Shown one piece after another: positions 3 to 36,262 of a stretch of 64,000 nt of DNA (positions within the stretch are counted from its first letter, which is position 1; the number at the start of each line of letters is the position of its first letter). Made by a program: the position numbers and the translations under genes. Below the pieces are notes generated by a model. It worked only from the letters and a program-made list of their open reading frames with translations, was not told the DNA's origin and did not search any database. Source of the DNA: a virus (lineage: Duplodnaviria > Caudoviricetes); the IMG/VR virus record IMGVR_UViG_3300047539_000055, one strand, 5' to 3'.

Positions 3-662
3 AAATGGTTCTCTCCACTAACCATTGACAATTTTGTGATAACCTTTCGCTCTCCAACATACGAAGAGTTCACTCACTTCTCCATTGAAGAGTTCAAAAT
101 ATCCAAACAACTATACCAAATATCCATAATGGAAACTCCAGATGATTACAATGATGCAATTGCGTCATTGCTGTCCCAAAAGATAAAATTAAATTTGGAT
201 TTTGAAACTCTTTGTATTAGTAGCGTTGCCATAGATGAAAATACAACTGTAATCAACCATAACCATATCGTAGAATGGTTTAGTCAATGCGAAATATTCA
301 TTCAAAAACAAATACTTGAGTATCTTGATGCAGCCAAGAAAGAAGGATGGTTGACTGATTTTTCAATTGATTGCTCTGAATGTAAGAAAAATTTTAAAGT
401 ACCGATTGACCTTGATCCTTGTGTTCAATTCAGAAATCAACTTATTTCTGCAAGCGAAAGTGAAGTGATTGACATTATCAAGCGCTATGGAGAGGAAACC
501 AAAGCATTATCCAACGACCTCTTGAAAATGTGTCGCTATATGCATGGCAGCATTTCTTATTCAGAAGCATATGCCCTAACCACGCACGAGCGCGAATGCA
601 TAGCCAAAATTATCGAAGACAATATTGAACTAACTAAGGAATCTGGAATGTCGTTCATGTAA
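3..662 (+). CDS. Baseplate hub protein (T4 gp26-like) with a fused C-terminal gp51-like helical segment; 5' end truncated by the window
   Basis: Frame is open from position 3 (KWFSPLTIDNFVITFRSP...). CSEC motif followed by 'KVPIDLDP' as in gp26-like proteins, then a 'YMHGSISYSEAY...IIEDNIELTKESGMSF' tail typical of jumbo-phage hub assembly proteins. Confidence 0.6.
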   Translation, partial: KWFSPLTIDNFVITFRSPTYEEFTHFSIEEFKISKQLYQISIMETPDDYNDAIASLLSQKIKLNLDFETLCISSVAIDENTTVINHNHIVEWFSQCEIFIQKQILEYLDAAKKEGWLTDFSIDCSECKKNFKVPIDLDPCVQFRNQLISASESEVIDIIKRYGEETKALSNDLLKMCRYMHGSISYSEAYALTTHERECIAKIIEDNIELTKESGMSFM

Positions 663-34068: not shown

Positions 34069-34512
34069 TCAAGTTTTGAATTGTTTTTCTATTTCGGTTT
34101 CATCTCCTGGTGTAAACTTGCACGGAGGGATTAAACCATTAAAAAACGCTTTTGATCCATCCGGTAATTTTTCCCTCAATGTATTATATTTAACCAATGT
34201 TTCAATTTCTGTATAAGCCAAAGTTCCACGAGATTCGTGTAGACTCAAAATTTCAAATTTGAATTGGTCTTTACCATGTAACAAAATCTCTGCATTCAAC
34301 CAATTTGAACTGCCTGTATACTTTTTCCAATTTGATTCCTTTATAACCTTTTTTCTATTTTTCCTATCTTTGACTATTTTTCTGGTAGTTGATTTGAAAA
34401 ATTTCTTTCCAATATACGATCTACCAGAAGGTATGTGAGTTATACGATAAACAAATCCAACAAATTGATCTGTATCAAATTCCTTGAAAAAATACCAATG
34501 TCCTGTGTCCAT
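34069..34512 (-). CDS. GIY-YIG nuclease family protein
   Basis: GFVY.I......R.YIGKK...ESNW..Y.GS; start at ATG 34512, 5 nt after TAAATA. Confidence 0.8.
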   Translation of the reverse strand: MDTGHWYFFKEFDTDQFVGFVYRITHIPSGRSYIGKKFFKSTTRKIVKDRKNRKKVIKESNWKKYTGSSNWLNAEILLHGKDQFKFEILSLHESRGTLAYTEIETLVKYNTLREKLPDGSKAFFNGLIPPCKFTPGDETEIEKQFKT

Positions 34513-34589
34513 ACCGATATTTATACTTTCGCGGCGGATTTTATTTAAAAGCAAATATATTTAAAAAACCTCTGGTTTCTCAAACAAAA

Positions 34590-34875
34590 GAAATGCGAAG
34601 CAAAATAGTATTTCTCGAACCAAGCGAGCAGTCCGGAGCGAAGCGGAGGACAGCGCAGCGAAGGAGAGAGAAAGACTTCTTTACAAAAAGCCAGCCGCGA
34701 AGCGGGTGGCGTTGTGCGTAGCACAACCGGGCCTGTAGGAAATTTGTTTTTAAATACACTTCTATGAAATCAGAATAGATTTTTCTATTCCTCATAAGAA
34801 TCATAGCTCACTTCGTTCGCTATGATTTTTTGAAGGAATTACTCGTCCTTCGGACTCGTCCTTCCTTCAAAATAC
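34590..34875. other. Cluster of GNA-loop DNA hairpins, candidate replication origin / priming signals
   Basis: GCGAAGC at 34595, 34638 and 34697; GTTGTGC-GTA-GCACAAC at 34711-34727 on +; CGAAG-containing hairpins on the minus strand at 34799-34872. Confidence 0.45.
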
Positions 34876-34962
34876 GCTTTATTTTGGTTTATTTTTAAAG
34901 ACAGAAACGCTAAAATGCGTTGTTTTAAAAAACGGAACGGCATTTACTGCTATCCCGCATGA

Positions 34963-35268
34963 ATACATCATCGGTCAAAATCTGCTTTGGGAGGGTTGCT
35001 CTGTTCCCAAATATGAATAAATTCAACGACGATCTTTATTAGCAGCGCAATCATTTCAACGATTCAAGAGATTGAAATGACCTGTGGAATTAGAACAAAT
35101 TATGTTCTTGTTAAATCCACTCCGTTTCTGGGTTTATTTATCCAATTACTCGGAAAGGTCACCACTTGCCTTGCGTCACCAGAAACTCCTTTTTGTATGC
35201 CTCTGATGTTTCGTCGCTAACGAGTTGTTGGCCTCAACGCGAGGCATTTAATACAACTATTGATGTAT
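34963..35268 (-). ncRNA. Candidate large structured non-coding RNA (~300 nt)
   Basis: Promoter TTGACA-17-CATACT directly upstream, no ORF, ends complementary (ATACATCA/TGATGTAT), at least six internal stems. Confidence 0.55.
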
Positions 35269-35272
35269 ATTA

Positions 35273-35301
35273 AGTATGGCAGAAATGTAATAACTTGTCA
35301 A
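35273..35301 (-). promoter_or_regulatory. Sigma70 promoter TTGACA-17-CATACT (extended -10) firing into the non-coding region
   Basis: Boxes at 35296-35301 and 35273-35278. Confidence 0.7.
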
Positions 35302-35482
35302 GTAAAAAGTTAACTTATTTTGAAAATATTGTTACCAAGTTTTATTTTACGAGGCTAAATAAAGATGAGTTAGAAGCTCAGGTTGAAATAAATAGATTTT
35401 GACTATGATTGTCATCAATCACAATTATTAGTCAGCCCACACTGCTTCTAACAGATGTGGGCATTTCTATTTAAGAGGTAAA

Positions 35483-36262
35483 ATGACGCAAAAGAAATGT
35501 GAACACGGAAGGCAACATAGCAGATGTGAAGAATGTGGCGGTATTGGAATATGCGAACATAAACGACAAAAAGGTTTTTGTAAAGAATGTGGTGGTTCTA
35601 CATTTTGTGAACACGGCAGAATAAAATATACTTGTCATGAATGTTGTGGTTCTCAAATATGTGAGCACAGCAAACGAAAAAGCCAATGTAAAGAATGTGG
35701 TAATCTTTCATCTAGCCACTTTCTAAAAGGAAGTTTTACCAAAAAGCGGCGTAAAGCCCCTGCCTTCAGGTATGGGGATATAAGCCGTGCTCTTGCTGTT
35801 GTTTTGTTCTTGACAGTATACTGCTTCATCTGGTATAGTTCTTATATGGCACTTACTCGACGCCTTGGGATACATGGAGTCGTTAAACGACTGCGGACAG
35901 TGTGTAAGTCTGGAGAAATTCAGCTAAGCTGGTTGAAACAGTTAAGGCGTTCGAAAGAACGCTAGAATCCCCCGGATTTATCCGTGGGGAGTATCAAAAA
36001 AGAACAAATCAAAGAAATGGGAGCAATAAAGGTTTGTCAATTTCCAAATTGTCTTGTCCAATCAAATGGGAAATCCCTAAATTCGGATCACTATCATGAT
36101 GGAAATAAAATCAATCCAAATAATTATAGAGGAGAACTTTGTCATGAACACAATATGTTATTAGGATGGCTTGAAAAATTTCCAGAAGCAGCGATTACTA
36201 ACGCAATAGAATATATGAAAAGAAGACCATATAAATCATTACAAGTTACCGAGATTAATTAA
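35483..36262 (+). pseudogene. Zn-finger/EndoVII homing endonuclease (paralogue of 13630-14190) interrupted by a mini-IS
   Basis: Removing 35740-35997 restores ...SFTKEQIKEMGAIKVCQFPNC, collinear with the paralogue's SFTINQLKEIGSIKICQFPNC (173 aa). Confidence 0.88.
35740..35997 (+). mobile_element. Non-autonomous IS200/IS605-family (IS608-like) element, 258 bp
   Basis: Inserted 3' of TTAC without target duplication. Left end: AAAG guide + CCCCTGCCTTCAGGTATGGGG hairpin. Right end: GAAT guide + CCCCCGGATTTATCCGTGGGG hairpin, ending in TCAA. Confidence 0.92.

Follow-up and report, generated by a model that had tools for sequence, protein, structure and literature searches.

A putative gene for a large structured RNA of an undescribed family in uncultured jumbo phages

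Large structured RNAs, once studied, have proved to be ribozymes, cores of ribonucleoproteins or self-assembling particles, as in the case of RNase P, group I and group II introns, OLE, ROOL and GOLLD. Large and strongly covarying RNAs that belong to no known family are, to our knowledge, rare. GOLLD and ROOL measure roughly 550-800 nucleotides (nt), and the put RNA of HK022 is about 65-70 nt long, with two stem-loops. Here we describe a candidate RNA encoded on the minus strand of a viral DNA stretch of 64,000 nt (IMG/VR record IMGVR_UViG_3300047539_000055; Caudoviricetes), the whole of which is referred to as the window. A preliminary description of this DNA had proposed a promoter-driven, highly structured non-coding RNA at the locus. 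We consider it about an even chance (probability roughly 0.5) that the locus is a genuine non-coding RNA gene of an undescribed family, whose product would act in trans as a folded RNA; our best guess for its role is a scaffold or a ribozyme-like molecule.

The window's DnaJ-like protein has about 20 metagenome homologues with 54-68% identity, and the relatives share a common layout in which a gap of 800-1000 nt that holds no gene separates the tail-fibre genes from a SegE-like gene of 147-153 amino acids, DnaJ and ClpB. The aligned gaps show a well-conserved block (~400 nt) in constant position and orientation, downstream of which lies a conserved cluster of GC-rich hairpins. Two versions of the block are distinguished. 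Type A, gathered by scanning IMG/VR for two conserved motifs, by a metagenome scan and by an nhmmer profile, comprises seven distinct sequences: L049, L050 (identical to L062, L067 and the complete genome G001), L051, L052 (identical to L053), L054, L055 (identical to L056, L059-61, L063 and L069-70) and L071. Type B consists of the window and L102 (identical to L103 and L068), bringing the family to nine distinct sequences. The RNA is present as a single copy in G001 (359,890 nt).

Both types covary, so that the syntenic comparison supports the structural claim of the preliminary description. For type A, RNAalifold yields 16 helices in which 95% of the cells are paired; 38 of the 96 pairs are changed on both sides, compared with 17.3 ± 2.5 in shuffles (0 of 500 contained as many) and with 2-10 double-changed pairs in slid controls, in which the partners were moved by 1-3 columns. 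The window and L102, when aligned, keep 55 pairs, 100% of them paired and 19 retained through double changes, against 0-3 in slid controls. Since the type B structure was built from the same two sequences on which it is tested, only its multiply compensated helices are given weight. Type A also contains invariant G-U pairs, for example at columns 66:79, 109:115, 174:211 and 278:290, which in the complementary strand would read as A-C mismatches, so that the fold is assigned to the sense strand. A two-sequence RIBOSUM alifold across the whole 0.8-kilobase (kb) gap overfits and was discarded.

The window's own sequence folds better than chance. The minus strand between 34920 and 35275 reaches a minimum free energy of -94.9 kcal/mol (z = -3.53; none of 100 shuffles equaled it) and the refined transcript, 34897-35266 (370 nt), gives z = -2.49, so that the high degree of structure claimed beforehand holds at z-scores of -2.5 to -3.5. 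The plus strand of 34920-35275 folds fairly well too (z = -2.55) and L102, folded by itself, shows no unusual stability (z = -1.09); both values favor a reading in which the gap has no RNA function, being a spacer or a DNA-level element whose structure arises by chance or reflects DNA hairpins. This reading is nevertheless highly improbable: the compensatory changes lie far above the shuffled and slid controls, the invariant G-U pairs are strand-specific, and a mean column identity of 74% in type A is a high value, given that the DnaJ proteins of these phages are only ~55-68% identical to the window's.

Every complementary segment listed in the preliminary description lies where it had been placed, including ATACATCA (35268-35261) and TGATGTAT (34970-34963), GCCTC/GAGGC, CGACGA/TCGTCG, GTGGA/TCCAC with nested AGAACA/TGTTCT, TCATTTCAA/TTGAAATGA and TTTGGGA/TCCCAAA, while the proposed pairings fared unevenly. 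The long-range pairs ATACATCA/TGATGTAT and CGACGA/TCGTCG appear only in the single-sequence fold and their columns are not kept in L102. The pairing of GTTTCTGG with CCAGAAAC has been replaced: GTTTCTGG (from 35186) pairs with CATCAGAGGC (35208-35199) to form a 10-base-pair (bp) hairpin whose loop AUACAAAAAGGA is conserved; the partner of CCAGAAAC is instead the RNA 3′ end. The refined helices are listed in Table 1. The 10-bp hairpin differs from its L102 counterpart by four double and three single compensatory changes around an identical loop. The outer stem of P1, read by eye, is GUUGU/ACAAC in the window, GUCGU/ACGAC in L102 and GAUUG/CAAUC in type A; only the type A version is counted (helix 1), the fold of the window and L102 alignment having placed the 5′ strand differently, and the inner hairpin covaries in L102 (helix 2). 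At the position of GUGGA/UCCAC, type A carries GGGG/CCCC (type A helix 7). The UUGCG that follows helix 8 is conserved in both types, and the loop UACAACACAACCG of type A helix 11 resembles the window's ACAGAGCAACCC.

Table 1. Features of the RNA locus in the window, with the corresponding stems of L102
Feature	Position	Strand	Counterpart in L102	Remark
Sigma-70-type promoter: TTGACA (35301-35296), 17-nt spacer with TG, CATACT (35278-35273)	35273-35301	-		
Proposed RNA body, ~370 nt, type B	34897-35266	-		3′ end predicted
P1: AGUUGU (35258-35253)/ACAACU (35228-35223), enclosing hairpin GCCUC/GAGGC (35245-35231)	35223-35258	-		
10-bp hairpin CAUCAGAGGC/GUUUCUGGUG with conserved 12-nt loop AUACAAAAAGGA (35198-35187)	35177-35208	-	CAUUGAAAAU/AUUUUCAAUG	Helix 4
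Small hairpin AAGG/CCUU	35155-35172	-		Helix 5, from the comparison of the window and L102
Long-range closing helix, 5′ strand (CCCAGAAACG)	35123-35132	-		Partner 34909-34902
Hairpin GUGGA/UCCAC with nested AGAACA/UGUUCU	35084-35120	-	CCAGA/UCUGG	Helix 7; three compensatory pairs
Hairpin GGUCAUUUCAA/UUGAAAUGAUU, then conserved UUGCGCUG (35050-35043)	35043-35082	-	GUAUUUGUU/AACAAAUAC, against UCAUUUCAA/UUGAAAUGA in the window (35082-35049)	Helix 8
Hairpin UUUGGG/CCCAAA with loop ACAGAGCAACCC	34986-35011	-	AGUGGA/UCCACU, similar loop	Helix 10; three compensatory pairs
T1: hairpin GCGGGAU...GUUCCGU and U6	34926-34958	-		T-run of the preliminary description; possible early stop
T2: small GC hairpin AACGC/GCGUU, then UCUGUCUUU	34897-34921	-		Terminator scan flags 34921-34906
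Conserved hairpin cluster between RNA and SegE-like gene	34560-34890	-		Possibly part of the same transcript
SegE-like GIY-YIG gene	34069-34512	-		Pfam PF19835, E 2e-35; downstream of the RNA in every case

The promoter predicted in the preliminary description, TTGACA-17-CATACT, is present in the window and scores 10/12 in a promoter scan, with a TG extension, placing the predicted start of transcription near A35266. Five of the nine homologues (the window, L049, L051, L071 and L102) carry a TTGACA/TTTACA-16..18-TAnnnT promoter immediately upstream of the RNA. In L052 and L054 the promoter lies ~130 nt upstream, with tandem repeats intervening, and in L050 and L055 a GIY-YIG gene of 211-212 amino acids is inserted at the promoter site, with no evident promoter. 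The intervening repeats consist of ~4-5 tandem copies of the unit GGTCTTCTCTTAT in L054 (3560-3640) and of irregularly spaced CATGG repeats in L052 (2740-2815), and they look like iterons or protein-binding sites. The stretch downstream of the promoter is free of open reading frames (ORFs), as had been claimed: its sense-strand ORFs run to 33 codons at most, no ORF is conserved among the homologues, and indel lengths are not multiples of three. A leader peptide was dropped as a candidate, because the Shine-Dalgarno-like loop followed by GUG or AUG yields unrelated ORFs of 6 and 11 codons. With respect to the usual marks of a non-coding RNA gene, a promoter of its own, the absence of an ORF and compensatory covariation are observed, and the 3′ end and transcription itself are predicted.

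The helix that closes the 3′ domain defines the extent of the RNA. CCAGAAACG (35130-35123) pairs with the 3′ segment CGTTTCTG (34909-34902), and this helix, YAGRAACG/CGUUYCUR, is found in 9/9 distinct homologues, with a double change in L051 (AGGAACG/CGUUCCU) and an outer pair that is variously C-G, U-G or U-A; the single-sequence folds of L055 and L102 each recover it. The preliminary description had ended a ~300-nt RNA near a T-run at 34926. The T-run exists, as T6 at 34931-34926, and the RNA itself stands as novel, but its boundary has to be moved: since the partner of CCAGAAAC is the 3′ strand at 34909-34902, the RNA reaches at least 34902, and the comparative fold extends it ~25-30 nt beyond the T-run. 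At the position of T1, the type A homologues carry a hairpin and a U-rich tract with unrelated stem sequences, and L102 has no U-run; T1 thus resembles a terminator in the window but not in L102. In most type A sequences T2 takes the form of a hairpin of 6 bp. Its 3′ arm overlaps CGUUUCUG (34909-34902), which supplies the closing helix with its 3′ strand, and the 3′ motif GCGTTYCTRTCTT is the best-conserved sequence of the locus. We favor a 3′ end at ~34897, with the tail folding back onto AGAAACG.

The same arrangement bears on the idea that the RNA is a cis-acting leader. A long early transcript would then begin with the RNA and run through the hairpin cluster into SegE, DnaJ and ClpB, and the RNA would control read-through at T1, T2 and the downstream hairpins, either as a processive antiterminator of the HK022 put kind or as an attenuator or sensor. 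Consistent with such a leader, all homologues keep one order of promoter, structured RNA, several hairpin-plus-U-tract elements and same-strand genes; the closing helix and T2 share sequence, the former's 3′ strand overlapping the latter's 3′ arm; and type A offers alternative three-segment pairings. However, a T4-type late promoter belonging to the SegE-like gene itself makes an upstream one unnecessary; T2, drawn as a hairpin of 3-4 bp, is compatible with the closing helix in several homologues, so that the two can coexist with no need for a switch; known antiterminator RNAs are five to six times smaller; and Rfam returned no ligand-binding family. We therefore regard a cis-acting leader as quite unlikely.

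The three-segment sets of type A (alignment A5, columns 11-60 and 79-118) are ACAAY/RUUGU/ACAAY and UAGGY/RCCUA/UGGGC. In each, the middle strand can pair with either of two near-identical flanks, all versions covary, and the sets may be conformational switches.

In the trans-acting scheme that we prefer, host sigma-70 RNA polymerase would initiate at the TTGACA-17-CATACT promoter, near 35266, as its conservation suggests. The transcript would fold into two domains: a 5′ domain composed of P1 with its nested hairpin, the 10-bp hairpin presenting AUACAAAAAGGA and the small AAGG/CCUU hairpin, and a 3′ domain of ~230 nt with at least four hairpins, closed by the pairing of CCAGAAACG (35130-35123) with the U-rich 3′ end CGUUUCUG-UCUUU (34909-34897). 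At the level of sequence comparison, covariation is shown for the helices of both predicted domains. Transcription would probably stop at the GC hairpin and U-rich tract (34921-34897), the freed tail refolding onto AGAAACG. In the least certain step, the invariant loops and junctions would form a surface for a protein or a nucleic acid, with a scaffolding or catalytic role rather than that of a messenger RNA. The guess at trans action follows from the RNA's own promoter, the closed multi-helix architecture, the invariant loops and junctions and the plausible terminator.

Types A and B share an order of elements along the whole RNA. The 5′ part comprises P1 enclosing a variable hairpin, an adjacent hairpin, YAGRAACG, two hairpins and UUGCG; the 3′ part comprises a hairpin with an ACA..C.A.CC loop, a variable hairpin with a U-rich tract, the small GC hairpin and CGUUYCUR-UCUU. 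By blastn, matches between the window's gap and its relatives are limited to the 3′ motif GCGTTTCTGTCTTTAAAAATAA and the downstream hairpin cluster. The SegE-like protein of the window has its closest counterparts in L050 (80% identical) and L052 (74% identical), both of which carry a type A RNA, and is 50% identical to that of L102, which carries type B. RNA type is thus decoupled from the similarity of the neighboring gene, which suggests mosaic exchange of the RNA segment among the phages.

Several points count against a trans-acting RNA gene. The window's version has one informative partner, L102, and the agreement between the two is inflated, since the structure tested on them was built from them. 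The type A nhmmer profile detected neither the window nor L102, and the covariance model R1, built on the type A center, scored 11 bits (E 1.2) at the window's true site, below chance hairpins; homology of the two types is suggested by synteny, motif order and the shared 3′ motif, not by statistics. At T1, most transcripts could terminate too early to include the 3′ strand of the closing helix, and the existence, ends and abundance of the transcript are predictions from the DNA sequence. Moreover, the RNA always fronts the same hairpin cluster and gene set, an arrangement that fits a cis role or an origin equally well, and action in trans is a guess.

The claim that the RNA has no recognizable family agrees with the searches. 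Against the 4227 models of Rfam 15, with a bit score at or above the family gathering threshold as the criterion, the window and its relatives gave no match; the best hits below that score were unrelated families (E 0.19-9.5), a 1.5-kb query of the window gave only junk (E 0.19-7.4), and none of the sub-threshold matches overlaps the RNA core convincingly. Short queries of types A and B returned no family reaching E = 0.1. In GenBank phages, blastn with the gap, the 3′ motif and a type A RNA found no real match, and nothing like the gap lies next to ClpB in the cultured Rak2-like phage fEgEco12. Single IMG/VR queries with ClpB, a 199-amino-acid protein and DnaJ returned distant relatives or none, and a type B-specific DNA pattern had 0 matches in IMG/VR. 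Across 185,579 prokaryote genomes the 3′ motif occurred as 12 chance matches, none accompanied by the RNA. No description of the RNA was found in the literature, and the main text of an article surveying viral structured-RNA candidates, more than 10,000 in number (PMC10690425), contains no terms from this context. Because Rfam, ARAGORN, GenBank phages and prokaryote genomes hold no match, the RNA is a new family within the known kind of large orphan structured phage RNAs. Its known range is nine distinct sequences, all from uncultured jumbo phages of one small Rak2/Atu_ph07-like clade.

It is hardly probable that the RNA instead belongs, in diverged or degenerate form, to a known class, namely group I introns, RNase P RNA, transfer-messenger RNA (tmRNA) or GOLLD/ROOL-type RNAs, and escaped the searches. 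Homing-endonuclease-type genes surround the region, which would suit an intron; A(U/A)UUGCG may resemble a group I P element, and the loop ACAGAGCAACC a stretch of Escherichia coli RNase P RNA. Yet short Rfam queries of either type found no family at E = 0.1, and ARAGORN reported 0 genes in the whole window, in accord with the earlier statement that hallmarks of transfer RNA (tRNA) and tmRNA are absent. The Intron_gpI model had no match at E <= 10 in queries of 0.9-1.5 kb, and a scan of seven sequences for covarying non-nested helices found no P3/P7-type pseudoknot. The RNA also interrupts no gene, being flanked upstream by its promoter (in relatives, by the tail-fibre stop codon) and downstream by the hairpin cluster and a separate gene with its own promoter, and there are therefore no exons to join. 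The hallmarks of RNase P are lacking too, as had been noted: no RNase P model matched, and GGAAAGUCC and ACAGAA, which we take to be RNase P motifs (CR-I/CR-V, P4 pseudoknot), do not occur in the sequence. Three further candidates were dropped: a CsrA sponge (too few GGA loops), a CIRCE operator (only a 5-bp palindrome) and a sarcin-ricin mimic (in L102 only).

Downstream of the RNA, the hairpin cluster is kept in all homologues in the same order, and transcription would be directed toward it, as the preliminary description had stated. In the window it contains a hairpin with the conserved loop GAACGAAGUGA and covarying stems, GUUGUGC-UUC-GCACAAC, GCCACCCGC..GCGGCUGGC, a 9-bp GC hairpin, isolated GCUUCGC motifs and AAACC-AGA-GGUUU. 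The acting strand of the cluster is ambiguous, because alifold gives -30.4 for the antisense against -24.2 for the sense orientation and because an A-C mismatch in one distal hairpin of L050 and L071, as read on the RNA-sense strand, is a G-U pair on the other.

This cluster brings in a possible, if unlikely, role in replication, which the preliminary description had proposed beside a protein sponge or scaffold and in which the RNA would be a pre-primer: as with ColE1 RNA II or the T4 oriF/oriG transcripts, a persistent RNA-DNA hybrid at the conserved A/T-rich 3′ region would prime leading-strand synthesis, and on the single strands thus displaced the very stable downstream mini-hairpins, which have GAA-type loops on both strands, would signal priming. 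The RNA, as a pre-primer like ColE1 RNA II, and the divergent GAA-loop mini-hairpins might together constitute a transcription-primed origin of a ~350-kb jumbo phage, with the RNA fold controlling R-loop formation, which we consider unlikely. In favor of a pre-primer, RNA and cluster are adjacent and in the same order in all cases; GCGAAGC/GCTTCGC motifs are concentrated at the locus, with three of the four GCGAAGC occurrences in the 64-kb window falling within the cluster locus and four GCGAAGC/GCTTCGC motifs within 270 nt in G001; the A-C versus G-U hairpin of L050 and L071 hints at a two-strand function; and iteron-like tandem repeats lie between promoter and RNA in L052 and L054. The cumulative GC-skew minimum also falls at 34.0-34.5 kb in the window, and that of G001 in the RNA-bearing bin (315-320 kb). 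However, the skew at fourfold-degenerate sites keeps its sign at the locus in both, so that the switch mainly reflects protein composition (tail-fibre against ClpB-side genes) and the minimum is not counted as support for an origin; the two sequences are syntenic, and the coincidence is not independent. Nor does a pre-primer sit well with a conserved 3′ end that is base-paired within the RNA, with a promoter scan that found no promoter for an antisense regulator, or with the lack of replication genes nearby. The genes on either side of the skew minimum share one strand.

The window derives from a jumbo phage with a genome of ~353 kb, whose proteins are distantly related (33-48% identity) to those of Rak2-like and Atu_ph07-like phages and which has no nucleotide-level relative among GenBank phages by blastn. 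The gene-free gap that houses the RNA, on the minus strand, spans 34513-35482 (970 nt). Downstream, all on the minus strand, lie the SegE-like GIY-YIG gene, the DnaJ-like gene and the ClpB-like gene. The SegE-like protein is 49-80% identical to its syntenic homologues, which marks the gene as a resident and not a recent invader. Its probable start is the ATG at 34512 (MDTGHW, as in relatives) and not an upstream TTG. A perfect T4-type late promoter, TATAAATA (34525-34518, minus strand), ends six nt ahead of this ATG, so that the late messenger RNA would be leaderless or nearly so.

Upstream, on the opposite strand, the gap is flanked by a Cys-rich ORF (35483-35965) and an endonuclease VII-type ORF (35984-36262), beyond which tail-fibre genes lie on the minus strand. 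The site just upstream of the RNA promoter is an insertion hot spot for endonuclease genes. It holds the plus-strand Cys-rich (CxxC-repeat) and endonuclease VII-type ORFs in the window (35483-36262) and the GIY-YIG gene in L050 (4037-4672) and L055 (3081-3719), and is empty in L049, L052, L054 and L102; in L050 and G001, a 77-nt duplicate of the RNA 5′ end (L050:3953-4029) precedes the inserted GIY-YIG gene. Three different homing-endonuclease cassettes have been inserted just upstream of the RNA in different phages, which fits a conserved target without proving one.

The window's RNA is encoded by a jumbo phage, has an early-type promoter of its own and is better conserved than the neighboring proteins, and the repeated insertion of different homing-endonuclease genes beside it suggests that changing it would be difficult for the phage. 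As a scaffold or ribozyme, it would represent a new functional RNA class for phage biology; should it be a pre-primer, it would give Rak2-like jumbo phages their first mapped type of origin. Either way, it provides a defined, testable object of ~400 nt with a comparative structure model, whose value is limited for now by its narrow, uncultured clade.

Compared with described systems, the RNA shares features with each and coincides with none. Like ColE1 RNA II and the T4 oriF, oriG and oriE transcripts, it is promoter-driven, several hundred nt long and transcribed toward a region rich in stable hairpins, with a conserved, A/T-rich 3′ region; like RNA II in particular, it is folded. Unlike these transcripts, it has neither sequence or structure similarity to them nor an antisense RNA I-like unit, its 3′ end is paired internally, and the skew evidence for an origin is weak. 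The put RNA of HK022 and other cis antiterminators likewise lie directly after an early promoter and before terminator-like hairpins, whereas the present RNA, at ~370-400 nt, is predicted to form a closed multi-helix domain. Group I introns of T4-like phages that contain or adjoin GIY-YIG or HNH endonuclease genes resemble it in being structured, a few hundred nt long and situated among homing-endonuclease genes; in contrast to them, it has its own promoter, interrupts no gene, matches no intron model and shows no P3/P7 pseudoknot in the seven sequences scanned. Finally, although it differs from GOLLD and ROOL in its smaller size (~370-400 nt for the family), the lack of an Rfam match, a position that is not beside tRNA genes and its restriction to one jumbo-phage clade, it resembles them in being phage-borne, large, composed of many helices and strongly covarying.

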